This document shows, one piece after another, positions 10,891 to 52,049 of a DNA stretch of 64,000 bases. The first letter of the stretch is position 1. Each line of letters opens with the position of its first letter. Under the pieces are notes generated by a model. That model was not told where the DNA came from. It saw nothing but the letters and a program-made list of their open reading frames with translations, and did not search any database. The DNA is from a candidate division WOR-3 bacterium (GTDB lineage Bacteria; Hydrothermota; Hydrothermia; Hydrothermales; JAJRUZ01), in NCBI GenBank assembly GCA_039803925.1, contig JBDRZL010000004.1, forward strand, positions 17,168 through 81,167. Reading direction: 5' to 3'. The position numbers and the translations under genes were made by a program.

Positions 10891-13722
10891 ATGAAGAAGT
10901 TATTAGTACTGGTGATAGGTTTTGCCTATCTGGTAGCTTCTCCCCTATCCCTTTTCCGTCCCTCTGATAAAAAGGGTCTTGATATACCCCTTAGGGCAAA
11001 ACCAATTTATAATAAAAGGGTAAAAGGTTCTTCAAATTACCAAATTCTCCAGACATGGACTACAATATTTTCAGAAGATTTTGAATCTGGAACAATGCCC
11101 ACTGGATGGACTGTTACTGATGGAAATAATGATGGATATAGTTGGACTGTTGGTGTTTCAAATGATCCCTTCTATCCGCCGAATTATGGAACAAATTATT
11201 TATACTATTCAGATGATGATGCGGGTTCTTCTGCACCACCTGGTGATGAAATTCTCACAACAAGCTCTTATTATATACGGAAAATTGCTAACTTGAGGTT
11301 TATATATGCCTATGATTTTGAGGAATACTTAGGACAACCTTATGAATATGGAGAAATCCATGCGAGGTTCTTTTCAGGAGGAACATGGTCTCCATGGAAC
11401 ATGCTTGTTCAGTATTACCAAGATACAGGTCCAAAATGGGATACCCTTGATCTAACATCCTTTTTACCAGCAGATTCTGTTCAGCTTAGATTTATATATA
11501 GAGACCCTTCTGGTGAGTGGGCCTGGGGATTTTATCTTGATAATTTCCTTCTTGAAGGAATTTTGCAAATTAATGTCCTTTTTGTTGATGATGACCAAGG
11601 ATTAACATATGAAAGTTATTTTGTTAATTCTCTTTCTTTTTTAAATGTTGACCATGATACTTTTGTGGTTCCTGCAGGTGCAAATAATGGTCCTGATTCT
11701 CTCTATATGTCAAATTATGATATTGTTATATGGAATACAGGTGATGATTGGACCTATACACTTACAGCACAGGATACAGTTGAAATCAAAAAATACTTAA
11801 ATGCTGGAGGTAGATTATGGTTATCTTCACAAGATGTGCTCTATAATCTCGGGACAAGTGTCTCCTGGATGCACATAACAGGTTTTACAAATGATATAGG
11901 CTGTCAATATGCAACAGGTTTGGGTCCTGTTATGCAGGGATTCAGTTTTGCTACAAATGGGAATGCTATGACTGATTTTGCAGATGCTATTAATCCTGAT
12001 CCATCAGCCTATCCTGAGGTTGTAAATCAGGATAATTATATAAATTCACTTTCATACTCAGGAACATACAAACTTTTCTTCAATACCTTTGCTTTTGAGA
12101 ATATAGCAGATCCTTATGATAGACATGAATTTGCAAGGAGAGTTTTAAGGTTTTTTGGTTATATTTTGCCCAAAAGGGATGTGGGAGTAAGCTCAGTTTA
12201 TCCAACAGGTTTAATGCAAATTGGTGATACAGTTCAGATATCGGCTACATTTAACAATTTTGGAACTCTTTTCCCTGAGAACTTTGCTGTTCATGTAGAA
12301 GTTAGAGATCCATTAAATAATGTTATTTTAACAAAAGATAGTATTATTACGGGATTTCAGCCTCTTGCAAAGGATACAATTTGGGCAGGAAGTGTTATAC
12401 TTTCCTTGGAGGGAATATATACTATAAAGGCTTATACAACAAGTAATTTTGATGAGGATGCTACAAATGATACTGTTATCGGTCAAATATATGCTTCTCC
12501 ATGGGGTTCCTGGACAATTTATCCTTCTCCGAGTGTAAATTATGACAGGTTAACTCACGCAACAGTTTACGATTATGATAACGATAGGATTTATATGATA
12601 GGTGGGACACCAAATGGACAAGCAGGTTCAAATGTTTCATATAATTACAGGTTTGATCCTTTAAATAATACATGGGAAACTAACCTTGCACCCATGCCAA
12701 CACCGAGGGGTTGGATACAGGGTGTTTATTATAATGGCTTTATATATGTGGCAGGTGGGTATTCTAACTCTCAAACTGCCCTTTCTGTTTTTGAAGCTTA
12801 TGATATACAGAATAATGCATGGGTAAATCTTCCTGCTTTACCATCCCCAAGATTAGCTTATGGAGCTGTTGCATGGAACGGTAGTGTTTATATTCTTGGG
12901 GGACTTGATGCAAGTTTTAATGCAACAAACACTGTTTTAAGGTATGATATATCAAATAATGCATGGACTTCCGCTACAAGTCTTCCTTTAAACTTCTTTA
13001 TGGGTGGTGTAACTCATATTAAGGATACTATATACATAGTTGGAGGTTATACAGGAACAGGAGCCTGGACAAATCTGTATAGGGGAATAATTGATCAGAA
13101 TAATCCGGATCTGATTACATGGCAGGATCTTGGTCCTCTTCCCTATCCTAATATGAATAATGCTGCTGTTAGTTTACCGGGTTCAATTATAATGATAGGA
13201 GGTTTTGTAAATGCAGCAACAGTTACAGATTCTGTATGGGAATACAAAATTCAATCAGGAACATGGGGACCTATACCTAATTATGTTGTCCCTGTTGTAA
13301 GAAATCATTTTGCAGTAGGAAGAAAAGCAAGAGGTGGAACAGGAGATAGAATTTACGTTGTTGCAGGTGATGCATATGGAGACTGGGATCCACCCAACAA
13401 TTATTACTATTACCTTGAAAGACCTGCTGCAATTTCTGTATCTGAAAAGGGAGAGAAAGTGAATAAGCCTTATCTTTTTGTTAAGAGTAATCTTTCAAAT
13501 GGAAGCTTTGTTATTAATTTTCTCCTTACAGAAGATAAGGATGTTGATATAGGTCTTTATAATATCCTTGGTCAAAGGGTGGCAACAATTTTCAAGGGAA
13601 CAAAATCAAAGGGTGAGTATACAATAAACTTTAATAAAAAAGACCTGAAATCTGGAATATACTTTATCAAAATGGAAACAGGAGATAGGATTCCTGTTCA
13701 GAGGATTGTAAAGATAAAGTAA
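10891..13722 (+). CDS. Large secreted T9SS cargo protein: jelly-roll domain + unassigned alpha/beta module + CARDB-like + Kelch beta-propeller + T9SS C-terminal sorting domain
   Basis: Signal peptide. An FSEDFESGTMPTGWTV...GFYLDNFLLEG jelly-roll (choice-of-anchor-J/MAM-like). The VLFVDDDQG...YDIVIWNTGDDW...LNAGGRLWLSSQDVLY module. Repeated Kelch-like units (IYMIGG / IYVAGGY / VYILGG / IYIVGGY / IIMIGGF / IYVVAGD). C-terminus ...DIGLYNILGQRVATIF...SGIYFIKMETGDRIPVQRIVKIK, typical of Por/T9SS CTDs. Confidence 0.8.
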   Translation: MKKLLVLVIGFAYLVASPLSLFRPSDKKGLDIPLRAKPIYNKRVKGSSNYQILQTWTTIFSEDFESGTMPTGWTVTDGNNDGYSWTVGVSNDPFYPPNYGTNYLYYSDDDAGSSAPPGDEILTTSSYYIRKIANLRFIYAYDFEEYLGQPYEYGEIHARFFSGGTWSPWNMLVQYYQDTGPKWDTLDLTSFLPADSVQLRFIYRDPSGEWAWGFYLDNFLLEGILQINVLFVDDDQGLTYESYFVNSLSFLNVDHDTFVVPAGANNGPDSLYMSNYDIVIWNTGDDWTYTLTAQDTVEIKKYLNAGGRLWLSSQDVLYNLGTSVSWMHITGFTNDIGCQYATGLGPVMQGFSFATNGNAMTDFADAINPDPSAYPEVVNQDNYINSLSYSGTYKLFFNTFAFENIADPYDRHEFARRVLRFFGYILPKRDVGVSSVYPTGLMQIGDTVQISATFNNFGTLFPENFAVHVEVRDPLNNVILTKDSIITGFQPLAKDTIWAGSVILSLEGIYTIKAYTTSNFDEDATNDTVIGQIYASPWGSWTIYPSPSVNYDRLTHATVYDYDNDRIYMIGGTPNGQAGSNVSYNYRFDPLNNTWETNLAPMPTPRGWIQGVYYNGFIYVAGGYSNSQTALSVFEAYDIQNNAWVNLPALPSPRLAYGAVAWNGSVYILGGLDASFNATNTVLRYDISNNAWTSATSLPLNFFMGGVTHIKDTIYIVGGYTGTGAWTNLYRGIIDQNNPDLITWQDLGPLPYPNMNNAAVSLPGSIIMIGGFVNAATVTDSVWEYKIQSGTWGPIPNYVVPVVRNHFAVGRKARGGTGDRIYVVAGDAYGDWDPPNNYYYYLERPAAISVSEKGEKVNKPYLFVKSNLSNGSFVINFLLTEDKDVDIGLYNILGQRVATIFKGTKSKGEYTINFNKKDLKSGIYFIKMETGDRIPVQRIVKIK

Positions 13723-13790: not shown

Positions 13791-14186
13791 ATGGAAAAAA
13801 CTCTTTTAATAATAAAACCAGATGCTGTTAGAAGAAATTTGATTGGTAAAATAATTTCAATGTGTGAGGAAAATGGATTTAAGGTATTGAATATAAAAAT
13901 GGAAAAATTAACAAGGAAAAAAGCAGAAAGTTTTTATAAGGTTCATAAGGGAAAGGATTTTTTTGAAAATCTTGTTAATTATATCACCTCCGACTATGTT
14001 GTTGCTATTTTACTTGAAAAGGAAAAAGCAATTGAAACTTTAAGAGAACTTGTTGGGGCAACTGATCCAAAAAAAGCAAAAAAAGGCACAATAAGGCATC
14101 TTTTCGGGATAAGTATAACAGAAAATTCTGTTCATGCCTCTGATTCAAAGGAAAGTTTTGAATATGAAGTAAAGCACTTCTTTTAA
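13791..14186 (+). CDS. ndk: Nucleoside diphosphate kinase
   Basis: LLIIKPDAVRRNLIGKII..., and NSVHASDS containing the active-site His. Confidence 0.95.
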   Translation: MEKTLLIIKPDAVRRNLIGKIISMCEENGFKVLNIKMEKLTRKKAESFYKVHKGKDFFENLVNYITSDYVVAILLEKEKAIETLRELVGATDPKKAKKGTIRHLFGISITENSVHASDSKESFEYEVKHFF

Positions 14187-15511
14187 TGCATTTTTCTGAA
14201 TTTTTTTTCCCAGTTTTAAAAAAAGAAATAGATGAAATATTTAAGGGGAAGAGGGTTAAAAAATTCTTATTTAGCGATAAAAAATTTTTTGTCATTTTTG
14301 ATGATAAAAATGTTTTAAAAATATCACTTGAGTCACAGAATTATTACTTTTTGCCTTGTATTTCTCCCCTTACAGAAAATAAAAACTTTTTAGAATTTAA
14401 AGAGCTTCCATATTTAAAGGATTTTGTTTATAAAAATTCAAAAATAATAGAAGGGGAAAGAATTTTTATAGCAAATTTTGTTAAGAAAAACCCTCTTGGA
14501 GAAATTGAAAAAAGAAAATTAATAATTGATTTTACGAGAAGAAAAAAAGAACTTTTGATATTGAAAGATGAAAAGGTTATATATTCCTTTTCAGGATTAA
14601 AAGAATTTAAAATAGAATTTCCTGATAAAATTAATATTTTTAAAGAAAATAATTTAGAAAAGATAAAAGAGTACACTCAAAAATTCTTACCCTTTTTATA
14701 TGAGGTTATAGAAAGAGAAAAAGAAATTTCAGATTTTAAAGAAATTCTTTATAAATATTTTAAAGGCCCCTTTTATGTTGATAAGGAGAAAAAATTGCAT
14801 TTGATCAAGAAGGGTAATTTTTTTGAATTTAAAAAATTAAGAGAAGCTCTTTTTTATATATACAGGGACCTTGAAAAAACAGAAATTGAAAAAACAAAGG
14901 TAAAAGAAAAAAAAGAAAAAATTTTAAAAAAAGAAAAATTTGACCCTGAAATATATAAAATTAAAGGGGAAACAATTTTACTTAATTTAAATCAGATTTT
15001 AGATAAAAGGGGGGTATTTAAACTAACTCACCCTGAAAATGGAGAAGTTGAGGTTGAAATAAAGTTTTCTGAGACACCCCAAAAAGCAGCAGAAAGGTAT
15101 TTTGAAAGATATAAAAAACTTAAAAGAGCTAATTTAATTAAAGAAAAAGTTGAAATTGAAAAAGAAAAAATACAAAGTTACAAAGTTTATATTTCACCTT
15201 CTGGTTTTAAAGTTTTAGTTTCAAAAAGTAAGGAATATGCCAATGAAGTTACCTTTAAAATTGCTAAACCTAACGATTATTTTTTCCATGTTAAAGATAT
15301 AAGAGGAGCACATGTTATCTTGAAATATGAAAAAAATAAAGAATTAAAGGAAGAAGATGTAAAATTTGCTGCTGAATTAGCAAAAAAACATAGCAAACTA
15401 AAAGGTGATGAAAAAGTTTATGTTCTTTATACTTTGAGAAAATATGTTAAACCTATCAAAGGAGAAAAAGGACTTGTTAGAATAAAAAGAGAAAAGGTTA
15501 TACTTGTATGA
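14186..15511 (+). CDS. NFACT-family protein (RqcH/FbpA-like) with C-terminal NFACT-R/DUF814 domain
   Basis: C-terminal YKVYISPSGFKVLVSKSKEYANEVTFKIAKPNDYFFHVKDIRGAHVILK matches the DUF814 signature. There is a central K/E coiled coil. The N-terminus resembles NFACT-N. At 441 aa it is shorter than typical RqcH. Confidence 0.7.
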   Translation: MHFSEFFFPVLKKEIDEIFKGKRVKKFLFSDKKFFVIFDDKNVLKISLESQNYYFLPCISPLTENKNFLEFKELPYLKDFVYKNSKIIEGERIFIANFVKKNPLGEIEKRKLIIDFTRRKKELLILKDEKVIYSFSGLKEFKIEFPDKINIFKENNLEKIKEYTQKFLPFLYEVIEREKEISDFKEILYKYFKGPFYVDKEKKLHLIKKGNFFEFKKLREALFYIYRDLEKTEIEKTKVKEKKEKILKKEKFDPEIYKIKGETILLNLNQILDKRGVFKLTHPENGEVEVEIKFSETPQKAAERYFERYKKLKRANLIKEKVEIEKEKIQSYKVYISPSGFKVLVSKSKEYANEVTFKIAKPNDYFFHVKDIRGAHVILKYEKNKELKEEDVKFAAELAKKHSKLKGDEKVYVLYTLRKYVKPIKGEKGLVRIKREKVILV

Positions 15512-16149
15512 TAAAATTTTTGCTTTTTCCTTCCACTCTTTTTATTTTTTTTAATTTAAAGAACTATTATATAAAAGTTTTTCCCCCTGATACTTTAAAC
15601 TTTGAGAAACCTTTTAATTTCGTAGATGTTAAAACTGACGGTTTATTCATTTATTTTTTAACAAGGGATGGAAAGGTTAAATCCATCAATCCCTATAATG
15701 GAACTCTCAAATCAGAATTTAAAATTAATTCCCTTTTATATGCTTTATACTTTGATGTTACAGATAGGGGTAATTTTTATTTTTTTATTTCAAAGGGGGG
15801 AACATCAAAAATTTTAAAAATAAAGTTTTCTCCCTTTGATACTACAGTTTATTATTATGATATTGATAAAAATTTGTTTGATTTTTTCTGTATAGATGAT
15901 AGTTTTTTTATTTTTGTTTTTAAAGACAGAATTTCAGTTTATAAAAATGGGAAACTAACCAAGATATTCAAAAAAAATTATAAAAATTATTTCAAATATA
16001 AAAATTCCTTTTATGTATATAGTGGAGATACTCTTTTTTCTCTGCTCATGGGAGAAAAAAAAGAATATAAAGGAAGTTATGATTTTTTGTTTATAATAGA
16101 TAAAGGTGAGATAGTTAATAAAGATAACAAATGGTTTTTAAAAAATTGA
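15508..16149 (+). CDS. Hypothetical exported protein
   Basis: Hydrophobic N-terminus (MIKFLLFPSTLFIFF). ATGA overlap with the upstream gene. Beta-rich, N/K/F/Y-rich sequence with no recognisable family. Confidence 0.5.
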   Translation: MIKFLLFPSTLFIFFNLKNYYIKVFPPDTLNFEKPFNFVDVKTDGLFIYFLTRDGKVKSINPYNGTLKSEFKINSLLYALYFDVTDRGNFYFFISKGGTSKILKIKFSPFDTTVYYYDIDKNLFDFFCIDDSFFIFVFKDRISVYKNGKLTKIFKKNYKNYFKYKNSFYVYSGDTLFSLLMGEKKEYKGSYDFLFIIDKGEIVNKDNKWFLKN

Positions 16150-19118
16150 TTAATTTGTTTATTTTCATAACACTGAATTCTCAAAATTTTGAATATAAGA
16201 GGGAAATAATAACCTTTGAAAGACCAATTATTATACTTGAATCTCCTCTTTTAAATTCCCTCAAAGTTTTTAAGGATACTTTTAAAATCCCTTTTAAATT
16301 AAAAAGTGACACTTTATTTCCTCTTTTGCCTCTTACGGAAAAAGATACCTTTTTTGTTGAATATCTTTCCTTTTTTTATAAAAAGGATACAACAGTTTTA
16401 AAAATAAAAAGTTTTTTATTGGAAGAAGAATACAGTGAAGAAAAAAAGAAAAGTATGGAAGAGGAGATGAATGTGGAAATAAAGGGTGAGAAAACCCTTT
16501 CTGCTTCCTATTCAGGTTACGGTTTTAAGATAGATCAGAGGTTAAATTTTGAAATTGATGGAGAACTTTCAAAGGGTTATAGAGTGAGGGGGAAAATAAG
16601 TGATGAATCATTTCCTGAAGAGGAAAATTTCACAAGGAATTTAACAGAACTTGAGGAAGCAAGTTTTAATTTTGAAGGAGAAAATTTGAAGGCTAAAATA
16701 GGTGAATTTACTATGAAATCAAATTTTTATCCAAAATTCAGCAAGGAAATTCTCGGTCTTGAATTTAATGCCTATGGTAATAAAAATAATTTTACCTTAA
16801 TCCTTGGTTATCCAAAGGGAAAATTTAAAACTTTATATATAGAACTTGATAAAAGTAATTTAAATAACTTTTTACTTATTGATCCTTTAAAGGAAAAAAT
16901 TGTTCCAAATTCTGAAAGAGTTTATCTTGATGGAAGATTATTAAAAAGGGGAAGGGAATTTGATTATATCATTGATTATTCAAATGGAACTCTCACTTTA
17001 ACTCAAAATGTAAGTTATTCTCTTAATTCAAAGTTAAGATTAGATTTTGAGATTGTAGAAGATGCTTATAGTAATTATATTTTTTCATCAGAGTATCAAA
17101 GAACCTTTGCCTTAATGAATTTAAATTTTATGTACATAAATGAAAGTGATATAGCTTCAATGCCTAAATTTCTTTTGAAAGAAGAAGATAAAGAGAATTT
17201 AAAAAATGTAGAGGATTCTTCTTGGGTTCTTTTAAATGGTATAAACCTTGTTGATTCAGGGAAGGGAGATTATATTTTGAAAAGTGATACTCTAATTTAT
17301 GTTGGAAAAAATAAGGGTAATGTTTTACCAAATTTTGTTTTTGTTGGTCCATTTGAAGGTGATTATGAATTTGTTGATGGAAAAAATTATTTTGTTTATG
17401 TAGGTGAAGGTAAGGGGTCTTATAAACCCGGAAAATGGGGTATTACTCCAAAAAGGAATCAGAATTTAATTTTTAGTTTAAAATCAGAAAATAATTTTTT
17501 AAAAATTGATAATACTTTTGGTTTTTCTCTTTTTAATCCTAATCTCTTTATTCGCAAGAATATATCAGGTTTTTATGGAGATTTTAGATTTAATGTTGAA
17601 AAAGGTAAATTTGGCATAGATTTTAATTTTTTAGGTAAAAAAAATTTTAAATCACCCTTTAGAATTTTTGAGGAAAATTATTTCTATTACTGGGGTAAAA
17701 ATATAAAGGGGAATTTTTATGATACAAGGATAAAACCCTATTTAAAGTTAAATGAAATTTTTAATCTCTATTACACTTACTCAAATTTAAAAAGTGAAAA
17801 TTTTTTTATAGATAAAAATTCTTATGGATACGAATTGAATTATTTTTTTAAAAATAAAACTGATATAGAGTTTTTTAGTTATAGAAAAAACAGTTGGAAA
17901 AGATTTAATTTATATTTTGAAAAAAAATGGATACTATCACCTTTTTATAACTATTTTTATGAAATAGATACACTCAAAATTAAAAAAATTAACGAAAGTT
18001 TTGGATTTAAAATAGATTTTAAAAATAAAAGTTTTTTATATGAAATTATATCCTTTAGAAGAAAAAGTTTAAGGGAGTTAAAAAATAATTTCAGAATTCT
18101 TTACAGTTTTGATAAACTAAATTTAAAGTTAAGTTCAAGTTTAATAAATTTGAAAGATTCAATAATTTCAAAAAGGGATTTTAATTATTATTTAGAAGCA
18201 AATTTTTATCCCAGGAACAATTTATCTTTAAATTTTGTATCAAATTTAATAAGAATGAATGGTTTAAGGAGGGTTTTTGAATATGTAAAAGTTCCAGAGG
18301 GAAGAGGTTCATATAGTTATGATTCTCTCAGCAATACTTTTTATCCTGATCCAGATGGTTCCTATATAAGAAAAATAAGAGATATTCCATTGAATGAAGG
18401 AATTTTGAAATCTGAAAATGATTTTTCCTTTAATTTTAATGGAGAGAAGTTTTTTTATATAACAAGTGTTTCATATAGAAGGGATAAAAGTTTTGAGCCA
18501 AGAACCTATTTTTCACTTATAAAGAATTTAAATTTTAATATTTTTTTGAGTCCCTTTTTGAATTTTATTTACATAAGGGATTTTAATAGAATTTTTGAAG
18601 GTTTTAATAGAAATGAAAGTTATGAAATTTTAACTGGAATTAAAAAAACTTATTTTAAAAAAATTTTAGAAATCTCAATAAATTTTAAAAGGGATATTTT
18701 TGAAGAACTATTCATTTTTAACAGAAAAAAAACTTATGCTTTACCTTTTTCTATTGTTATCTCTGAAAGTAATATTAATTCTAAAATAAAGCTTTCGCCG
18801 GGTTTAGTTATTCTTGAATATTTTAGACCAGAATCTAATAGAGAAAGAATTCCTTTTTTGGAATTTAATTTTAATTTATCATCAATTTTTATATTTAAAA
18901 CAAAGATTTTTTTTGATTTTAATTTTATAATAAAAAAATCCTATAAAAGAAGTTTTGCTTCCAGTTTTGAAAGGGATAATTGGAGATATAATTTTAGTTT
19001 TAAAGTAGAAAGGAATATTACAAGTAATACTATAGTTATTTTGAAATCAGATTTAAGGAGGGGTTCTTTCTCAAAGTCTTTTTATAATTTTTATCTTGAA
19101 ACAAAGTTGCTTTTTTAA
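16131..19118 (+). CDS. Large (995 aa) hypothetical outer-membrane protein, probable beta-barrel; family unassigned
   Basis: N-terminal hydrophobic leader. Long stretches of alternating aromatic/polar short strands. C-terminal residue Phe (...YLETKLLF), as in many OMPs. It overlaps the upstream ORF by 19 nt. Confidence 0.55.
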   Translation: MVFKKLINLFIFITLNSQNFEYKREIITFERPIIILESPLLNSLKVFKDTFKIPFKLKSDTLFPLLPLTEKDTFFVEYLSFFYKKDTTVLKIKSFLLEEEYSEEKKKSMEEEMNVEIKGEKTLSASYSGYGFKIDQRLNFEIDGELSKGYRVRGKISDESFPEEENFTRNLTELEEASFNFEGENLKAKIGEFTMKSNFYPKFSKEILGLEFNAYGNKNNFTLILGYPKGKFKTLYIELDKSNLNNFLLIDPLKEKIVPNSERVYLDGRLLKRGREFDYIIDYSNGTLTLTQNVSYSLNSKLRLDFEIVEDAYSNYIFSSEYQRTFALMNLNFMYINESDIASMPKFLLKEEDKENLKNVEDSSWVLLNGINLVDSGKGDYILKSDTLIYVGKNKGNVLPNFVFVGPFEGDYEFVDGKNYFVYVGEGKGSYKPGKWGITPKRNQNLIFSLKSENNFLKIDNTFGFSLFNPNLFIRKNISGFYGDFRFNVEKGKFGIDFNFLGKKNFKSPFRIFEENYFYYWGKNIKGNFYDTRIKPYLKLNEIFNLYYTYSNLKSENFFIDKNSYGYELNYFFKNKTDIEFFSYRKNSWKRFNLYFEKKWILSPFYNYFYEIDTLKIKKINESFGFKIDFKNKSFLYEIISFRRKSLRELKNNFRILYSFDKLNLKLSSSLINLKDSIISKRDFNYYLEANFYPRNNLSLNFVSNLIRMNGLRRVFEYVKVPEGRGSYSYDSLSNTFYPDPDGSYIRKIRDIPLNEGILKSENDFSFNFNGEKFFYITSVSYRRDKSFEPRTYFSLIKNLNFNIFLSPFLNFIYIRDFNRIFEGFNRNESYEILTGIKKTYFKKILEISINFKRDIFEELFIFNRKKTYALPFSIVISESNINSKIKLSPGLVILEYFRPESNRERIPFLEFNFNLSSIFIFKTKIFFDFNFIIKKSYKRSFASSFERDNWRYNFSFKVERNITSNTIVILKSDLRRGSFSKSFYNFYLETKLLF

Positions 19119-19136
19119 TTTTTTATTTTATATAAT
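19107..19136 (+). promoter_or_regulatory. Promoter candidate TTGCTT-18-TATAAT placed 6 nt before the fadD ATG (leaderless-type)
   Basis: TTGCTT (19107-19112), 18-nt spacer, TATAAT (19131-19136), then acggtt-ATG (19143) with no SD. Confidence 0.5.
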
Positions 19137-19142
19137 ACGGTT

Positions 19143-20801
19143 ATGGAGAGAATATGGTTAAAGTTTTATGATAAGGGTGTAAAAAGTGATATAGAAATAC
19201 CAAAGGTTCCTCTTTTTTACTTTCTTCTTGAAACTGTAAAAAATTTTCCAGAAAAGGATGCTTATATATTTTTTGACAAAAGAACAAAATTCAAAGAACT
19301 TCTTTTTAAATGTAGAAAATTTGCTTCTTTTTTGAAAGAAAATGGAATAAAAAAGAAAGATAGGGTAGCTTTTCTTTTGCCCAATACTCCCCATTTTGTT
19401 ATTTCCTATTATGGAACTATGATGGTAGGTGGGATTGTTGTTCAGTTAAACCCTTTACTTTCTGATAGGGAAGTTTCTCTTCTTTTAAAGAATTCAGGTT
19501 CTAAAATCTTAGTAATTCTTGATATTTTACTGCCAAGATTTCTGAATTCCATTAAAAGTTCAAATATTGATTTTTTAATTGTTGCTCAGATTGACGAATA
19601 TTTTCCACCTTTTAAAAGAATTGGTTTCAAATTTTTTAAAATTTTGAAGGGAATAAATCGAAAGTTGAAAGGTTTAAAGAGAAAATATTTCTTTTTTAGA
19701 GAAATTGAAAATTATAAGGAAATAGAAAATTTTGAAAAAATAGACCCAGAAGAAGATATAGCTTCCCTTCAATATACAGGTGGGACAACAGGGATTCCAA
19801 AGGGTGCAATGCTCACTCATTACAATCTTGTTGCAAATACTTTGCAAACGATGGAATGGGTTCCTGATTTAAGAAAAGGTGAAGAAGTTGTTATGGGTGT
19901 TTTACCCTTTTTCCATGTTTATGGAATGTCAGTGGCTTTAAATTTTTCAATAGCTTCTGGTTCAACTTTAATAATTGTTCCTAAATTTCATACCAAGGAA
20001 ATTCTTGAAAAGATAGAAAAATATAAGGTAACAATTTTTCCTGGTGTTCCACAGATGTATCAGGCAATAAATAACTTTAAGGATATTAAAAAATATAAAT
20101 TAAGTACAATAAGAGCATGTATTTCAGGAGCAGCACCTTTACCACCTCAGGTCAAGGATAAATTTGAAGAGTTAACAGGTGCAAAACTTGTTGAGGGTTA
20201 TGGATTATCTGAAGCTTCACCTGTTACCCACTGTAATCCCCTTTACGGTAAAAATAAAAGGGGAAGTATAGGTGTTCCTTTTCCAAATACCTTAGCAAAA
20301 ATTGTTGATCTTGAAAAAGGTGAAAAAGAAATGCCCATTGGTGAGCCAGGAGAATTAATCCTTAAAGGTCCACAGGTAATGAAAGGTTATTGGAACAATG
20401 AAGAAGAGACTAAAAAGGTTATAAGGGATGGATGGTTATATACAGGTGACATAGCAAAGATGGATGAGGATGGTTACTTTTATATTCTTGATAGAAAGAA
20501 GGATTTAATAATTGTGAGCGGATTTAATGTTTATCCAAGAAATATTGAGGAGGTTCTTTTAACTCATCCAAAAATCAAGGATGTTGCCTGTGTTGGTATC
20601 CCCTATGAAAAAACAGGAGAAGGTGTTAAAGTATTTATAGTGCCAAAGGAAGGAGTCAGTTTAACAAAGGAGGAGGTAATTGAATTTTCAAAGAAAAATC
20701 TTGCAAAGTATGAAGTTCCTGTTGAGGTTGAATTTGTTAAGGAAATTCCAAGAACAGCAGTTGGTAAAACTTTAAGAAGGGTTTTAAAGGAAAAAAGTTA
20801 A
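19143..20801 (+). CDS. fadD: Long-chain fatty acid--CoA ligase (AMP-dependent synthetase)
   Basis: AMP-binding motif LQYTGGTTGIPKGAMLTH, plus GYGLSEASP, YTGDIAKMDEDGYFYILDRKKDLI and a C-terminal ...GKTLRRVL. Confidence 0.88.
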   Translation: MERIWLKFYDKGVKSDIEIPKVPLFYFLLETVKNFPEKDAYIFFDKRTKFKELLFKCRKFASFLKENGIKKKDRVAFLLPNTPHFVISYYGTMMVGGIVVQLNPLLSDREVSLLLKNSGSKILVILDILLPRFLNSIKSSNIDFLIVAQIDEYFPPFKRIGFKFFKILKGINRKLKGLKRKYFFFREIENYKEIENFEKIDPEEDIASLQYTGGTTGIPKGAMLTHYNLVANTLQTMEWVPDLRKGEEVVMGVLPFFHVYGMSVALNFSIASGSTLIIVPKFHTKEILEKIEKYKVTIFPGVPQMYQAINNFKDIKKYKLSTIRACISGAAPLPPQVKDKFEELTGAKLVEGYGLSEASPVTHCNPLYGKNKRGSIGVPFPNTLAKIVDLEKGEKEMPIGEPGELILKGPQVMKGYWNNEEETKKVIRDGWLYTGDIAKMDEDGYFYILDRKKDLIIVSGFNVYPRNIEEVLLTHPKIKDVACVGIPYEKTGEGVKVFIVPKEGVSLTKEEVIEFSKKNLAKYEVPVEVEFVKEIPRTAVGKTLRRVLKEKS

Positions 20802-45412: not shown

Positions 45413-45940
45413 ATGATGCATTCAACTACTGTTCTTGGTATTCTAAAGGATGGAAAGGCTGTAATAGGGGCTGATGGGCAGGTTACCTTTGGAGAGACAG
45501 TTTTAAAACACAAGGCTAAAAAGGTAATGAAAATTTTTAATGGGGAAGTTCTTGTGGGATTTGCTGGTGCGGTTGCTGATGCCTATACTCTTTTTGAAAA
45601 CCTTGAAAAAAATTTGAAGGAATTTAAAGGAGACCTTATGAGGGCTTCCGTTGAACTGGCAAGAAGATGGAGGCAAGATAAATTTTTAAGGAGACTTGAA
45701 GCACTTATTGCTGTTATTAATAAAGAAAGGGCTCTTATAATCTCAGGAAACGGTGAAGTTGTTGAACCTGAATATGGAATAGTTGCCATTGGTTCAGGTG
45801 CACCTTATGCAAGATCAGCTGCCCTTGCCCTTTTAAAACATACTGATTTGGAACCAAGAAAAATAGTTGAGGAAGCTCTTAAAATTGCTGCTGAAATATG
45901 CATTTACACCAATGAAAATTTTACAATTTTAGAACTATGA
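45413..45940 (+). CDS. hslV: ATP-dependent protease subunit HslV
   Basis: N-terminal Thr context MMHSTTVLGILKDGKAVIGADGQVTFGETVLKHKAKKV, GFAGAVADAYTLFE, ISGNGEVVEPEYGIVAIGSG, ICIYTN. Colinear with E. coli HslV. Confidence 0.93.
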   Translation: MMHSTTVLGILKDGKAVIGADGQVTFGETVLKHKAKKVMKIFNGEVLVGFAGAVADAYTLFENLEKNLKEFKGDLMRASVELARRWRQDKFLRRLEALIAVINKERALIISGNGEVVEPEYGIVAIGSGAPYARSAALALLKHTDLEPRKIVEEALKIAAEICIYTNENFTILEL

Positions 45941-46614
45941 AAGATAAAGAGGAAATAAGTTACAAAAAATTTCTTGATTTTTTTAAAGAAAAAACAGAGG
46001 AAAGTAAAAAGGAAACACCTATAAAAGAAGAAACTTCAAAAAAGAAAATAAAAAAGAAAAAAATTGAGGAAAAAAAAGAAATAGTTGAAAAAGAAGAATT
46101 AAAGGAACCGGGATTTAAGCTCGAAATGAGTTCCGAAGTGAAACCCGAGGAAATAAAAGAAGAATTACCCGAGGCAATTGTAGAAGTGGAAGAAGTTAAA
46201 GATGAAGAATTTTTAATTTTCAGGTTAGGAAGTGAAAACTATGCAATTTATACTCAGGATGCATCAGAAGTTATAACTGGTTTAGAGGTTTTTGAAGCAA
46301 CTGATTTACCATCTTATGCTATAGGTATGGCTAATTTTAGAGATAGAATAATACCTGTTATTTCATTTTCTAAACTTTTAAATATTGAAGAAGAAAAAGA
46401 GCCTTATTCCTTTATTTTTATTGAAAAGAAAGATAAAAAAGAAAGTTTTTTCCTTAGGGTAGGTGAAGTGAGGGGAATTTATAAAAAAAGAGATGTAAAA
46501 TTACTTGAAGTCCCTTATGACCTGGATAAGGAAATTTTTAAAAAAATAATTCTTATTGATAAAGAACTTATTCCCCTTATAGATGTTATAAAGTTAATAG
46601 AAAAGAAGGAATAA
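45937..46614 (+). CDS. CheW-like domain protein with a long K/E-rich N-terminal extension
   Basis: The C-terminal ~135 aa (EFLIFRLGSENYAIYTQDASEVI...MANFRDRIIPVISFSKLLNI...FLRVGEVRGIY...LIPLIDVIKLI) follow the CheW pattern. ATGA overlap with the hslV stop. Confidence 0.7.
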   Translation: MKDKEEISYKKFLDFFKEKTEESKKETPIKEETSKKKIKKKKIEEKKEIVEKEELKEPGFKLEMSSEVKPEEIKEELPEAIVEVEEVKDEEFLIFRLGSENYAIYTQDASEVITGLEVFEATDLPSYAIGMANFRDRIIPVISFSKLLNIEEEKEPYSFIFIEKKDKKESFFLRVGEVRGIYKKRDVKLLEVPYDLDKEIFKKIILIDKELIPLIDVIKLIEKKE

Positions 46615-47340: not shown

Positions 47341-48618
47341 ATGAATTTTAATGAGGCAAATCTTTTTCTTGAATCTTTAATAAATTATGAGAAAAAAACT
47401 CCTAAAAATGATTTTGATTTTTTAAGGTTTATTGAAAATTTAAAGGAATTTGATAATCCTCAGAATTACCTTAAAAATACATGTATTATAGCAGGAACGA
47501 AAGGGAAAGGGAGCACAGCCCATCACATTGTAAGTGGTCTTTTAGAAAATAATTTTTCAAATACAGGGTTATACACTTCTCCCCATGTTATGAATGTAAG
47601 AGAAAGGATAAGGATAGGTGAAAATGATATAAGTGAAGAGGATTTTATCTATTATGTTTTAAAAATAAAAGAAAAAATTGAAAGTGGAATTAATCTAACA
47701 TATTTTGAAGCTCTTACAGTTATGGCTTTCTTATTTTTTAAGGAAAAAAATACTCTTTTTAATGTTTTAGAAATTGGTCTTGGTGGAAGACTTGATGCAG
47801 TGAATGCCACTCCATCCGATTTTTCAATAATAACACCTATAAGTTATGACCATGAGCATGTTCTAGGAAACACTTTAAGTAAAATTGCCTATGAGAAGAG
47901 TTTTGTTATTAAGGGAAAATACTCAATAATATCACCTCAACCTAAGGAAGTGCTTTATGTTCTTTTAGAAAGGGCTAAAAAGGTTAAAAGTGAAGTTTTT
48001 CTTCTCGGTATAAAAATTCCCTTTAAAATACTTGAACTTTCTGAAAGGGGGACATATTTTAAGATTTATTTTGATACGAGGTGGCATCATATTTTTACTT
48101 CTATGATAGGTGATTTTCAGGCAATCAATGCTTCCCTTGCTTTTATTTACTTATATTTAAATAATATAAGGTGTTATGATTTTAAAAAATTTAAACTTTT
48201 TGGAAGATTTGAAAGGATTCATGATAATCCTTTTTTTATAGTAGATGGTGCTCATAATCCAATTTCTTTAAGAGCTGTTACAAGGAATGTGAGAAAAATA
48301 ATAAAAAGGAAACCCAGATTTTTAATTTTCGGGACTAATAGAGACAAAAATATAAAGAAAATGCTTAAAATTTTACAGGAACTTGAACCTAAGTGCCTTA
48401 TTTTAACTCAATCACATATACCGAGGAGAGAAAATCCAGATAGTTTATATGAAATTGCTAAAACATTAAATTTCAAAAAAATTTTAAAGTTTGAAGATGC
48501 TTTTGAAGCCTTTAAATTTTCCTTTGAAAATTCTGATTCAAATTCCTTTATACTTCTAACAGGTTCCTTTTATCTTGTTGAACTTGCAAAAAGATTTATA
48601 ATTGAGAATAAGTTATAA
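47341..48618 (+). CDS. folC: Folylpolyglutamate synthase / dihydrofolate synthase
   Basis: Mur-ligase P-loop IAGTKGKGST, YTSPHV, EIGLGGRLDAVN, VDGAHNP. Confidence 0.85.
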   Translation: MNFNEANLFLESLINYEKKTPKNDFDFLRFIENLKEFDNPQNYLKNTCIIAGTKGKGSTAHHIVSGLLENNFSNTGLYTSPHVMNVRERIRIGENDISEEDFIYYVLKIKEKIESGINLTYFEALTVMAFLFFKEKNTLFNVLEIGLGGRLDAVNATPSDFSIITPISYDHEHVLGNTLSKIAYEKSFVIKGKYSIISPQPKEVLYVLLERAKKVKSEVFLLGIKIPFKILELSERGTYFKIYFDTRWHHIFTSMIGDFQAINASLAFIYLYLNNIRCYDFKKFKLFGRFERIHDNPFFIVDGAHNPISLRAVTRNVRKIIKRKPRFLIFGTNRDKNIKKMLKILQELEPKCLILTQSHIPRRENPDSLYEIAKTLNFKKILKFEDAFEAFKFSFENSDSNSFILLTGSFYLVELAKRFIIENKL

Positions 48619-48624
48619 TATAGG

Positions 48625-51198
48625 ATGCTTTCAAAGAAACTCGGTAAGTATGAGATTCTGAAATGGCTCGGTGGAGGAACTTTTGGTGATGTTTACCTTG
48701 TAAAAGACACTCTAATTGATAAACTTTTTGCAATTAAAATACCGAGAATAAAAGAAGAGGAATGGGAGATTTTAAAAAGAGAAGCAAAGATTCTTTCAGA
48801 ACTTCTTCATGAAAATATAGTTAGATTTTATTCCGTTGATATTATTGATAACAATCTAATAATGACAATGGAGTATGTTGAAGGTTCATCTTTAAGAAAT
48901 CTTATAAAATCAGCACCATTAAAGGAGGATCTTGTTGTTGATATTTTTAAAAAAGTTTTACTTGCCCTGGATTATGCACATAAAAAGGGAGTGCTTCATA
49001 GAGATTTAAAACCTGAAAATATACTTTTAACAAGGGAATTTGAACCAAAGATATCTGATTTTGGACTTGCCATGATTTTTCAGGAAAAAGTTTCCGGGCA
49101 AGTTGTGGGAACACCTTTATATCTTGCTCCAGAAGGATGGAGAGGCAATTATAATGAAAAAACTGATATATTTGCTGTAGGTTCAATTATGTATGAATGT
49201 TTTATGGGTTTTCCTCCCTTCCAGGGTAGAACCCTTGATGAAATAAGGGAAAAGATAAGAAAAGGAAGTTATCCCAAAATAAAGGAAAATGTTAGTGAAA
49301 ATTTAAAGAAAATTATTGAAAAGTCTATTAATCCTGAACCTGAAAAAAGGTTTAAAAATGCAATTGAGATGTTAAGGGCTATTGAAGGTGATTTCAAAGT
49401 TTCAGTGAGTCCCTTAGTAGAAGTTAAAATAAGTGAAAAGAAAAAAATTATCTTAGAAGATCTTACTGAGGAGCAAAAAGATGCTGTTACATCTGAAGAA
49501 AGGTTTATTCTTGTAAAAGGTGGAGCAGGAACAGGGAAAACTTTAAGTTTATTAAGAAGGGCAGCCTATTTAATTGAGATTAAAAAAATTGAACCTGAGG
49601 AAATTATTATAACAACATTTACAGGAAAGGGAATTGAGGAGATAAGGTCAAGACTTATGCTTTTACTTTCAAAGAAAAAGTATTTATCTTTAAACATCGG
49701 AACAATGCACAATCTTGCTTTACAGGTTCTTTATGTAGGTGGTTCAAGAATTGGTTTTGATATGGAAAAAACAAAAATTTTAACAAGGAGTGAGAGTTTT
49801 CAAATAGTTAAGAATATATTTCCTGATATATCACAGATAGAGCTGGAGGAAATAATGAAGACAATTTCAATTTCAAAAGCAAATCTTTTAAGTTACCAGG
49901 ACCTTTTAAGATCAGATTATGCCTGGCAGAGAAGATGTGGTATTGTTTATAAAAAATACTCAGAAACCTTAAAGGAGAATAATCTTTTAGATTACGATGA
50001 CCTTATCTATTATGCTAATTTACTTCTTGAAAATTACGATGATTTAAAAGAAAGATTTATCCATTCAATAAAACATTTACTTGTAGATGAATTTCAGGAC
50101 CTAACCTTTGGGGAAGTTTCTCTTTTAAAAAAATTAAGAGAAAAAGGGGGCTCACTTTTTGCAACTGGTGATGAAGATCAAGCTATTTACAGTTTTAGGG
50201 GTGCATCTAATGAATTTATAATTAATTTTGATAAGTATTTTGAAAATTCAAAAATATATTATCTTACAAAATCTTTTAGGATTCCTGAACAGATTTACGA
50301 AGCTGGTTTAAAAATTTTATCAAAAATAAAAAACAGAAAGGAAATTTTTTTTGTTCCTGCGGAAAAAAAAGGACAGAGAATCTTTATATATCATGCTGAA
50401 GATGAAAAGGATGAGGCAAAATTTGTTGCAGGTCAAATTAAACTTTTGTTTTCTGAAGGAATAAAGGAAGAAAAAATAGCAGTTCTTTCAAGGTATTCCT
50501 TTTATCTTAAAAATTTTCAGGAAATTTTTAAAAAGGAAAATATCCCTTACAATATTCAGGGTAAATCAAGATTTTATGTAAGGGGGATTGTAAGGGCAAT
50601 TATCAATTATCTTGAATCATTGGTAACAGGAAAAAAAACACCTTTTAATATGGCAATAAAGTTTTTTTTAGGTGATAAAAAAATTGATGAGGGAGTTTTG
50701 AAACTATGGAAGGAACATATTAGGGAAAAATTAAATAAGAGACCTCTTGAAATTGTGAATGAATTTCTTGAAAAAATAAAGTTTTATGAATTTTTAAAAA
50801 ATTTACCTCAAGATCAAGAAAAAGAGGAAAGGGAGATAATTGAAGAACTTTTCTTTTTATTAAAAGAGTATAGGGAAGGTGAGGTAAAAAAATTTTTAGA
50901 TTCTTTTTCAGTTTTAGAAAATCTTGAAACTGATACAAAGGAAGGAGGGGTTTTTCTTTCAACAATTCATGGTGCAAAGGGACTTGAATTTGATGTAGTT
51001 TTTATAACAGGAATGGCAGAAACAATTTTCCCAAAAACTCAAAGTTTAAGTAATAGAAAAGAATTAGATGAGGAAAGGAGACTTTTTTATGTAGCCTTAA
51101 CAAGGAGCTGTGAAAAAGTTTTTATAACAAGACCGAAAACAAAATTTGGAAGAAAACTTTTACCCTCAAGATTTATTGAGGAGATGATAATTACATGA
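48625..51198 (+). CDS. Fusion protein: N-terminal Hanks-type Ser/Thr protein kinase + C-terminal UvrD/PcrA/Rep-like SF1 DNA helicase
   Basis: Kinase (aa ~8-255): GGGTFGDVY, FAIKIP, EAKILS, HRDLKPENILL, DFGLA, GTPLYLAPE. Helicase (aa ~280-857): LTEEQKDAV, GGAGTGKT, LLVDEFQDLT, TGDEDQAIYSFRGA, KSFRIP, TIHGAKGLEFDVVFITG, ERRLFYVALTRS. It is one uninterrupted ORF. Confidence 0.85.
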   Translation: MLSKKLGKYEILKWLGGGTFGDVYLVKDTLIDKLFAIKIPRIKEEEWEILKREAKILSELLHENIVRFYSVDIIDNNLIMTMEYVEGSSLRNLIKSAPLKEDLVVDIFKKVLLALDYAHKKGVLHRDLKPENILLTREFEPKISDFGLAMIFQEKVSGQVVGTPLYLAPEGWRGNYNEKTDIFAVGSIMYECFMGFPPFQGRTLDEIREKIRKGSYPKIKENVSENLKKIIEKSINPEPEKRFKNAIEMLRAIEGDFKVSVSPLVEVKISEKKKIILEDLTEEQKDAVTSEERFILVKGGAGTGKTLSLLRRAAYLIEIKKIEPEEIIITTFTGKGIEEIRSRLMLLLSKKKYLSLNIGTMHNLALQVLYVGGSRIGFDMEKTKILTRSESFQIVKNIFPDISQIELEEIMKTISISKANLLSYQDLLRSDYAWQRRCGIVYKKYSETLKENNLLDYDDLIYYANLLLENYDDLKERFIHSIKHLLVDEFQDLTFGEVSLLKKLREKGGSLFATGDEDQAIYSFRGASNEFIINFDKYFENSKIYYLTKSFRIPEQIYEAGLKILSKIKNRKEIFFVPAEKKGQRIFIYHAEDEKDEAKFVAGQIKLLFSEGIKEEKIAVLSRYSFYLKNFQEIFKKENIPYNIQGKSRFYVRGIVRAIINYLESLVTGKKTPFNMAIKFFLGDKKIDEGVLKLWKEHIREKLNKRPLEIVNEFLEKIKFYEFLKNLPQDQEKEEREIIEELFFLLKEYREGEVKKFLDSFSVLENLETDTKEGGVFLSTIHGAKGLEFDVVFITGMAETIFPKTQSLSNRKELDEERRLFYVALTRSCEKVFITRPKTKFGRKLLPSRFIEEMIIT

Positions 51199-52049
51199 AA
51201 AGTATTTCAGTTATAATTGTAAATTATTATTCAAAAAATTTAATAGAAGAGCTTTTGAAAACTTTGCCAGAAGTGATAAAAAGAGAAGGTGAAATAATAA
51301 TTGTTAACAATTCACCAGAGGAAGTCCTTTCTTTTAATGGTTATGATAATTTAAAAGTTATAAATAATGAAAAAAATTTTGGTTTTGGGAAGGCTGTTAA
51401 TATTGGAGTAAGAGAAAGTGAAGGTGAGTATTTACTTATAGTAAATCCTGATGTGAAGTTCATAAAAGGTTTTGAGAAAGCCTTTGATTTTATAAAGAAA
51501 AAAAAGAGGATTTCTATGTTAATTCCACTTTTTGTTGATGAAGAAGGTAAAAAAATAGTGCCATTTAGAGATGTGGAATATGGTTTTCGTTGTTTTATTT
51601 ATATGATGGGGTACGATGAGTTTATAAAAAAGAAGGAAAAAAAGAGAATTAAAGAGAAATTTTTAAAGGTTTCTCCTGGAGCATGTTTTATTATACCTTC
51701 CAAAATTTTTAGAAAGATAGGGGGTTTTGATGAATCCTTTTTTTTATTTAAGGAGGATGAGGATTTAGAAAGAAGGTTGAGGAGGGAAAATTTTTATATT
51801 TATTTTTATCCAGATTGGGTAGTTTATCATAAATTTGGTGCCACTCATAAGGAGAGTGATTTTGCTTTTTATCACAGGGTTAATTCTCTTTACATTTTTT
51901 ATAAAAAACATCAAAGATATTTCTATCCTGTTATAAGGATTCTTTTGCCTTTATTTTATCTTCTAAAATCTTTTAAAAATAAAAAAAATTTTAAATATTT
52001 TTTGATTTCTTTAACTTCCAATTTTAAAAAGTTAAAGGAGATAAAATGA
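51195..52049 (+). CDS. Family 2 glycosyltransferase
   Basis: SVIIVNYYS...IIVNNS...NFGFGKAVNIG...LLIVNPDV...EDEDL are typical GT2 (rhamnosyltransferase-like) motifs. It overlaps the upstream gene by 4 nt. Confidence 0.8.
   Translation: MKSISVIIVNYYSKNLIEELLKTLPEVIKREGEIIIVNNSPEEVLSFNGYDNLKVINNEKNFGFGKAVNIGVRESEGEYLLIVNPDVKFIKGFEKAFDFIKKKKRISMLIPLFVDEEGKKIVPFRDVEYGFRCFIYMMGYDEFIKKKEKKRIKEKFLKVSPGACFIIPSKIFRKIGGFDESFFLFKEDEDLERRLRRENFYIYFYPDWVVYHKFGATHKESDFAFYHRVNSLYIFYKKHQRYFYPVIRILLPLFYLLKSFKNKKNFKYFLISLTSNFKKLKEIK

Follow-up and report, generated by a model that had tools for sequence, protein, structure and literature searches.

A single open reading frame encodes a kinase and a helicase

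We analysed a window of 64,000 nucleotides (nt) from a candidate division WOR-3 bacterium (GenBank assembly GCA_039803925.1, contig JBDRZL010000004.1, positions 17,168 to 81,167 of the forward strand; all positions below are those of the window). Our subject is an open reading frame (ORF) of 857 amino acids (aa), located at 48625..51198 on the + strand and starting with ATG, whose product was identified from the ORF list, Pfam, homologous clusters and a profile search as a fusion of a Hanks-type Ser/Thr kinase with a PcrA/UvrD-like helicase. A first-pass annotation made from the sequence alone had described such a fusion, and its coordinates, its length and every motif that it quoted were found in the translation. 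The kinase motifs are LGGGTFGDVY (residues 16-25), FAIK (K38), E53, HRDLKPEN (125-132), DFG (145-147) and APE (168-170), and the helicase motifs are GGAGTGKT (299-306), DEFQD (488-492), GDEDQAIYSFRGA (515-527), TIHGAKGLEFD (780-790) and LFYVALTRS (820-828).

The results of the Pfam scan that had been suggested with this annotation (PF00069, PF00580 and PF13361) showed that all three models matched far above their gathering cut-offs. The protein kinase domain, of the RD-type Hanks Ser/Thr class, covers residues 9-244 (48649..49356, + strand; PF00069, E 6e-55) with a score of 186.8 bits against a cut-off of 31.7. A flexible interdomain linker at residues 256-273 (49390..49443, + strand), encoded in a single open frame, separates the two halves. 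The UvrD/Rep helicase N-terminal region, which corresponds to domains 1A and 1B and contains the Q motif, Walker A (motif I) and motifs Ia, II (DEFQD) and III, covers residues 280-539 (49462..50241, + strand; PF00580, E 3.5e-57) with 194.6 bits against a cut-off of 23. The UvrD_C region (50242..51195, + strand; PF13361, E 4e-42) scores 145.2 bits against a cut-off of 25.6, with its best stretch at residues 708-835, and comprises domain 2A and a shortened all-helical domain 2B (approximately residues 667-775) together with motifs IV, V and VI. The helicase half of the protein carries the full superfamily 1A (SF1A) motif set (Q, I, Ia, II, III, IV, V and VI). The protein has no transmembrane segment and looks soluble; PASTA, FHA, TPR and WD40 modules are also absent.

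Distribution and conservation of the fusion family

We searched approximately 5.8 billion clustered proteins (clusters at 90% identity) and found approximately 110 clusters with full-length Pkinase, UvrD-helicase and UvrD_C domains, 831-903 aa in length and 31-97% identical to the window protein, which originated from NCBI, JGI, ENA and Logan assemblies. The taxon labels of these clusters, where given, were candidate division WOR-3, Candidatus Hydrothermota or Hydrothermales, with the single exception of one 'Pacearchaeota' label, which we suspect to come from a mis-binned contig. The closest relatives of the window protein bear the WOR-3 label (97% identity) and the Hydrothermales label (75-76% identity). 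Matches ranking under the fused clusters covered the kinase alone (approximately 29% of the query) or the helicase alone (approximately 67%). An index-free profile search of 1.84 billion representatives at 50% identity gave approximately 32 full-length fused representatives at 774-1186 bits, together with a few fragments and the divergent fusion P0151 (described below). Next below them were ordinary PcrA/UvrD proteins of 700-790 aa, which matched profile positions of approximately 275-872, corresponding to the helicase half from end to end, at 520-570 bits, and among which a few long kinase-only proteins were interspersed. The best named unfused helicase matches were ordinary PcrA proteins, for instance from Bacillota, and the database names of the fusion itself were generic (e.g., 'UvrD-helicase domain-containing protein').

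In absolute terms the fusion family is rare, and it looks monophyletic. It is found almost exclusively in the phylum WOR-3 (Hydrothermota, Caldipriscota), where, from its sequences, its inheritance appears to be vertical. In a scan of viral contigs, none of the best 80 matches spanned both the kinase and the helicase, which is a weak negative. No description of a Pkinase-UvrD fusion was found in the literature searched, WOR-3 genomics papers included. The literature result agrees with the first-pass annotation, which knew of no characterised kinase-UvrD fusion. The annotation had also proposed an architecture search, and this search showed a nearly phylum-restricted architecture rather than a common, characterised family.

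Conservation was counted in an alignment of 128 full-length members, of which a 29-sequence subset was also aligned. In the kinase half, D127, K129, N132, D145, G147, T163, E170 and R242 were present in 128/128 members, E53 in 126/128 and K38 in 125/128, the other three being alignment gaps. The kinase signatures (G-loop, VAIK Lys, alphaC Glu, HRDxKxxN, DFG, APE, subdomain IX Asp and subdomain XI Arg) were 96-100% conserved, except for G21, which was found in 103 of the 128 members and replaced by Ala or Ser in the others. In the helicase half, K305 of Walker A, D488 and D492 of motif II, R552, R623 and G786 were invariant (128/128), Q519 of motif III and R827 of motif VI were each present in 127/128 members, and Q284 of the Q motif in 125/128. 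The conservation of Q284, GxGKT (302-306), DExQD (488-492), GDxxQxIY (515-522), R552, HxxKGLEF (782-789) and VAxTR (823-827) was likewise 96-100%. The linker was poorly conserved, and the spacer from R242 to Q284 varied from 35 to 58 aa over the family. The conservation of the catalytic residues in these 128 members indicates selection on both enzymatic activities rather than a decaying fusion. Both halves, which the first-pass annotation had regarded as active-looking, are thus apparently catalytically competent and under strong purifying selection throughout the family.

The same annotation had left room for an artefact at the junction. The region 49380-49480 holds one open frame, the other two frames containing stops, and the GC content and the GC content at third codon positions (GC3) are equal in the kinase half, the helicase half and the flanking genes. 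A run of seven adenines (A7, 49441-49447) lies within the linker-coding DNA, where the frame is undisturbed. Homopolymer runs such as this one are error-prone in some sequencing chemistries, and only here could an insertion or deletion introduced by sequencing make two genes look fused or disrupt a real fusion. The A7 run would be the point in favour of an assembly chimera, of a hidden frameshift joining two genes or of a decaying pseudogene, whereas the continuous frame with stops in both alternative frames, the uniform composition over the gene and its neighbours, the catalytic residues kept in both halves and the identical architecture in more than 100 independent clusters all argue against these explanations. 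A chimera or frameshift is excluded for practical purposes because the full-length architecture recurs in so many independent clusters from many assemblies; the artefact or pseudogene reading, to which we give next to no chance of being correct, is effectively refuted.

Structural model and missing parts of PcrA

An AlphaFold (AF2) model was built on the 29-sequence alignment. Both globular parts were confident, with a mean predicted local distance difference test (pLDDT) score of 84.7. Residues 256-273 of the linker, which is approximately 20 aa long, were disordered (pLDDT of approximately 27), and the predicted template modelling (pTM) score was only 0.56. The disordered linker and the pTM of 0.56 suggest a beads-on-a-string arrangement of the two modules, in which no fixed kinase-helicase interface is predicted. 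The best Foldseek match of the kinase half was the kinase domain of Mycobacterium tuberculosis PknB, with a template modelling (TM) score of 0.82. The top matches of the helicase half were PcrA, UvrD and Rep (target TM of 0.68-0.74), the 1A/1B/2A/2B fold being recovered with a shortened 2B, and no solved structure covering both halves was among the Foldseek matches. By all of the sequence and fold features examined, the protein is, at the superfamily level, a Hanks kinase joined to a UvrD-like SF1A helicase.

PcrA was the best NCBIfam, PDB-sequence and Foldseek match of the helicase half, which aligned to residues 8-402 and 481-641 of Geobacillus stearothermophilus PcrA with approximately 30% identity. 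Residues 403-480 of PcrA, which we take to be the GIG duplex-binding region, were unaligned and faced 41 query residues, so that approximately 40 residues of domain 2B are lost, and no G-I-G was read in residues 667-775 of the translated window protein. The C-terminal 80 or so residues of PcrA (642-724) were without counterpart in the window protein, which stops approximately 30 aa past motif VI; this tail is at most 43 aa long in 128/128 members. The Pfam search found no match to PF21196 (Tudor) in the window protein, whereas the best unfused match, PcrA P0152 from Bacillota, has one. The motif set, which had been called compact but complete, is therefore complete, and its compactness corresponds to the missing Tudor domain and the missing part of 2B. 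The C-terminal Tudor domain of PcrA/UvrD is an RNA-polymerase-binding module (PMC5397179, PMC3797733, PMC8318588), and domain 2B controls the activity of UvrD-family helicases (PMC13646824, PMC11912403). As judged from the alignments, the motor is a PcrA/UvrD core without its usual protein-partner module and without part of the regulatory 2B, to which a kinase was added at the other end. A canonical PcrA, UvrD or Rep orthologue was ruled out by the equivalog score, the missing Tudor domain (PF21196) and the shortened 2B.

The missing elements bear on a first alternative to the mechanism that we favour, which is that of a motor carrying a kinase to its clients on DNA. The fusion could be primarily a regulated housekeeping helicase, in which the kinase would have no external substrates and would autophosphorylate the linker or the helicase, or answer a cell-cycle or stress input, in order to switch the motor on or off. 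The kinase would then substitute for the autoinhibitory and partner-dependent control exerted through 2B and the C-terminal domain. Part of 2B, with its control over UvrD-family activity, and the whole Tudor domain, which are the usual regulatory and partner-binding elements, are indeed those that are missing; the kinase is of the RD type (HRD conserved), a type usually controlled by activation-loop phosphorylation, and the flexible tether permits phosphorylation in cis or in trans. However, no conserved Ser/Thr acceptor was identified in the linker or in the helicase half, and the linker is poorly conserved. Moreover, an on/off switch would not need a kinase that is kept complete, substrate-binding lobe included, throughout the phylum, and the apparent translational coupling of the fusion to an ARPP-1 gene (described below) suggests an external client. 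We consider an internal switch unlikely to be the whole explanation, though a serious contender; it is compatible with a DNA-directed kinase and the two are not mutually exclusive.

ARPP-1 as the gene partner of the fusion

We then compared 13 neighbourhoods of the fusion, consisting of the window and of the loci of 12 further diverse members, with up to approximately 20 kb per relative. A gene of the ARPP-1 family (PF20208, E 1e-55 to 1e-61) encoding 285-340 aa was located directly upstream of the fusion, on the same strand, in 7/13 neighbourhoods, and was the sole recurrent gene partner. These ARPP-1 genes are at L083:3179-4033, L085:3204-4073, L088:7122-7997, L089:7009-8004, L092:7099-8004, L093:7072-8004 and L255:6917-7939. 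The two genes overlap by 4 nt in four cases and are separated by a gap of 3 nt in two cases and of 61 nt in one; as arranged, they are apparently translationally coupled. In a neighbour-joining tree, the ARPP-1-linked members are on the deepest branches of the family, and the clade of the window protein (with P0010 and P0018) was unlinked in 3/3 sampled cases. The deep position of the linked members implies that an operon of ARPP-1 and the kinase-helicase probably existed in the ancestor of the family, and that the clade of the window has since lost it or moved ARPP-1 elsewhere.

The reverse test was done on 80 metagenome ARPP-1 loci. Among these, the 18 loci closest to the WOR-3 type and one more had the kinase directly downstream of ARPP-1 in 19/19 cases, the whole fusion being visible in 13 and the contigs being truncated in 6. 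The distant loci, which are not of the WOR-3 type, showed other neighbours. A 488-aa protein with DUF2779 and RNase_H_2-like regions is encoded directly upstream of ARPP-1 in several of them (L126:4400-5866; L129, L141, L145 and L167; fragments in L127, L140 and L156), and a DSP-phosphatase/ADP-ribosylglycohydrolase fusion (L129:2687-4267) and a WYL-WCX regulator (L137:1952-2959) were also found as partners.

The main text of the paper defining ARPP (Iyer et al. 2022, PMC9503650) describes a domain whose fold affinity is unknown, in which a Cys and a Gln are absolutely conserved; it predicts this domain to be enzymatic and links it to ADP-ribosylglycohydrolase (ARG) systems, HIRAN, WYL and a deacetylase. 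In that same text, ARPP is proposed to act on sugar moieties, possibly via a covalent Cys adduct like that of the SRAP domain, and a kinase-UvrD partner is not named. The WOR-3 ARPP-1 proteins retain the conserved residues (Q79 and C100 in the numbering of L083) and matched no PADLOC or NCBIfam model. The fusion is a genuine single polypeptide, hitherto uncharacterised, in which familiar modules are joined in a novel conserved architecture and with a novel gene partnership.

Other neighbouring genes

In the window, the fusion gene is preceded by a Mur-ligase-family (FolC-type) gene at 47341..48618 (+ strand; Pfam Mur_ligase_M/C), which ends 6 nt before it, and followed by a GT2 glycosyltransferase gene at 51195..52049 (+ strand; Pfam Glycos_transf_2), which overlaps it by 4 nt. 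Both the families and the spacings are those reported in the first-pass annotation. In the other lineages, the FolC-type and GT2 genes are not kept beside the fusion. The co-directional run of housekeeping genes of the window consists of those for an S9 peptidase, HslV, a CheW-domain protein, BacA/UppP, the FolC-type ligase, the fusion and the GT2 glycosyltransferase, and an M16 peptidase, a DUF374 protein and a UMP-kinase-like protein (the last judged from its translation alone) are encoded downstream on the opposite strand. The flanks of the fusion in the other loci are variable and mostly housekeeping, with genes for S12, S7 and EF-G, an ftsZ/mur cluster, TsaB and TsaE, PheRS, IleRS and type IV pili. 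No UvrD-family paralogue was found in the 64-kb window.

The CheW-domain protein (45937-46614), encoded between hslV, with a 4-nt overlap, and bacA/uppP, has a low-complexity, Lys/Glu-rich N-terminus of approximately 90 residues, and a CheW gene is also located just downstream of the fusion in L090. Three genes were each seen once and may be there by coincidence: an FHA-GGDEF protein gene (L083:8208-9104) two genes downstream of P0090, an endonuclease V gene (L255:10865-11560) adjoining P0139, and an Ogg-type glycosylase gene (L091:14171-14842) approximately 3.5 kb from P0095. Farther away in the window, the G+C content of the region 14000-20000 is 0.24-0.25, compared with approximately 0.30 elsewhere; this region lies downstream of an Ndk-like gene and encodes proteins of 441, 213 and 995 aa of unclear function. 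A secreted-looking protein of 943 aa (10891-13722) has Kelch-like repeats and a C-terminal tail resembling, by eye, a Por/T9SS sorting domain, and many Por_Secre_tail proteins are encoded in the loci of relatives (L081).

A divergent kinase-UvrD fusion of 963 aa, P0151 (L254:4090-6981), has a full-length UvrD_C (2B) region and is without ARPP-1. It is surrounded by small DUF433, CopG-antitoxin and TumE-like genes and its architecture may have arisen independently or been acquired by lateral movement.

Evidence for and against a defence function

The neighbourhoods also bear on a second alternative, an anti-phage or conflict system. ARPP-1 and the fusion as a two-gene module, or the fusion alone, would sense foreign or damaged DNA through the motor, and the kinase would trigger abortive infection or shutdown by mass phosphorylation; such a logic would resemble that of the Stk2 or PD-T4-6 kinases and of Gabija GajB. 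At the domain level, PADLOC gave strong matches to mad6 (242 bits), GajB (240 bits), PD-T4-6 and a helicase associated with DRT systems. The systems in which ARPP was first defined are ARG-centred conflict systems, and its partners elsewhere are nucleases, WYL regulators and an ADP-ribosylglycohydrolase; the linked locus L092 lies beside VWA, Tubulin_2, DUF6361 and SbcC-like genes, and the outlier P0151 lies among small toxin-antitoxin-like genes.

However, the PADLOC and NCBIfam matches are limited to generic kinase or helicase cores, with MAD6 scoring 163 bits for a cut-off of 460 and PglW 82 bits for a cut-off of 990, and ARPP-1 is without a PADLOC match. Next to the fusion there is neither GajA nor a methyltransferase, nor any other partner of such systems. 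The family is nearly phylum-restricted, its tree follows lineage and its length and architecture are conserved, whereas a patchy distribution is typical of defence genes. The genes around it serve the ribosome, cell division, tRNA modification and the cell wall, and no fusion was found among the best 80 viral-contig matches. We regard a defence function as quite improbable. The first-pass annotation had favoured a lineage-specific core gene over an island-borne defence gene, and this choice fits the near phylum-restricted spread, the variable housekeeping flanks and the result of the viral-contig scan.

Membership of specific defence systems was also rejected. For Gabija GajB, no OLD or TOPRIM gene was found beside the fusion in any of the 13 neighbourhoods. 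For MADS MAD6, BREX PglW and PD-T4-6, the scores were below cut-off, the PADLOC matches covered the kinase core only and no methyltransferase or BREX genes were adjacent.

Discussion

The reading that we favour, with a probability of about one half, is that of a PcrA/UvrD-type motor which carries a Hanks kinase to DNA, making the enzyme a DNA-dependent protein kinase whose targets are itself and clients bound to DNA. The helicase half would be the PcrA/UvrD-like 3'-5' translocase of this lineage on single-stranded DNA (ssDNA), working at gaps, stalled forks or lesions. The motor would deliver the kinase to DNA, concentrate it there and probably activate it through trans-autophosphorylation of neighbouring molecules, and the kinase would then phosphorylate itself and other proteins bound there. 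Among these, ARPP-1 (where it is present) and, by analogy with the YabT kinase discussed below, RecA/SSB-type proteins are candidates. PcrA/UvrD-type motors act on RecA filaments, and RecA-type clients are for this reason an obvious guess. The N-terminal kinase would take over from the lost Tudor domain in linking the motor to partner proteins. At loci with ARPP-1, the target of this protein could be a sugar-level DNA lesion (abasic or ADP-ribosylated), which it would mark or process and which would then be handled by the motor-kinase. The mechanisms put forward in the first-pass annotation, a sensor of DNA damage or a helicase gated by autophosphorylation, are likewise hypothetical.

Several observations weigh against this mechanism. 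The structural model contains no defined kinase-helicase interface (pTM of 0.56), and allosteric gating is neither supported nor denied by it. The equivalog scores are far under their cut-offs for PcrA (TIGR01073; 356 vs 911 bits), UvrD (TIGR01075; 260 vs 1144 bits) and Rep (TIGR01074; 283 vs 951 bits). The role of the fusion as the PcrA/UvrD of its lineage is that of an unproven candidate, and WOR-3 genomes could also encode a separate canonical PcrA/UvrD. Searches by tblastn and with the ARPP hidden Markov model found no ARPP-1 gene in the 64 kb of the window, nor at the unlinked loci L081, L087, L090 and L091, and a mechanism that depends on ARPP may not be applicable to the gene of the window. 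The description of ARPP in a context of biological conflict, given in the main text cited above (PMC9503650), leaves room for a defence role, and the substrates assigned to the kinase are pure inference.

A bolder form of the DNA-dependent kinase reading, which we offer as a speculation with little chance of being correct, is that the fusion, ancestrally together with ARPP-1, is a phylum-wide DNA-damage checkpoint. ARPP-1 would covalently mark, or process, sugar-level lesions (abasic or ADP-ribosylated sites) in ssDNA, the motor would track to them or to stalled complexes, and the kinase would broadcast the event by phosphorylating repair, recombination or replication proteins. If true, the logic would be that of the DNA-dependent checkpoint kinases of eukaryotes, here borne by a helicase, and would stand in place of the coupling to RNA polymerase seen in canonical PcrA/UvrD.

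In bacteria, Hanks kinases are usually connected to modules that sense extracellular cues or small molecules, and what directs UvrD-family motors is usually a partner-binding tail or a nuclease domain. A kinase-motor with both active sites kept over a phylum would exemplify natural DNA-templated phospho-signalling in bacteria, and would give a starting point for working out what the enigmatic ARPP-1 domain does. Coming from a thermophile, looking soluble and being modular, the protein is an attractive subject for biochemical and structural studies, and genetics and phosphoproteomics are becoming feasible with strain sy37, a cultured representative of WOR-3 (PMC12285271).

Comparison with known systems

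The similarity of the fusion to GajB, MAD6, PD-T4-6/Stk2-like kinases and PglW is at the domain level, and those systems keep the UvrD-like motor or the Hanks kinase on separate proteins. The fusion differs from these defence helicases and kinases in being without GajA, methyltransferases and PglX/Z, and in being phylum-wide with a housekeeping context. Comparison with the ARPP pairs published in the main text of the defining paper (HIRAN, WYL; Viruses 14:1977) showed that the partner is again a DNA-related protein and that the conserved Cys and Gln are kept. However, a kinase-UvrD partner is absent from the main-text list, and the window is without ARPP-1.

The kinase half has the full catalytic signatures of the PknB/Stk1/StkP class, and its best kinase NCBIfam model was PknB_PASTA_kin. 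It differs from this class in its score (194 bits vs an equivalog cut-off of 450 bits) and in that the C-terminal 'sensor' position is occupied by an ATP-driven DNA motor. The helicase half shares all motifs and the four-subdomain fold with PcrA/UvrD/Rep (G. stearothermophilus PcrA, PDB 1PJR/3PJR), whereas the fusion has an N-terminal Hanks kinase and is without the RNA-polymerase-binding Tudor domain and approximately 40 residues of 2B.

The nearest functional precedent is the YabT protein of Bacillus subtilis, a Hanks kinase that is switched on when it binds DNA and has RecA as a substrate (PMC3708118, PMC6333020). The fusion would work like YabT in concept, as a Hanks kinase coupled to DNA and acting on a DNA-metabolism protein, and this analogy of function carries no claim of orthology. 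YabT is anchored in the membrane and uses a short, basic juxtamembrane motif to bind DNA, whereas the fusion looks soluble and carries a complete SF1 motor.

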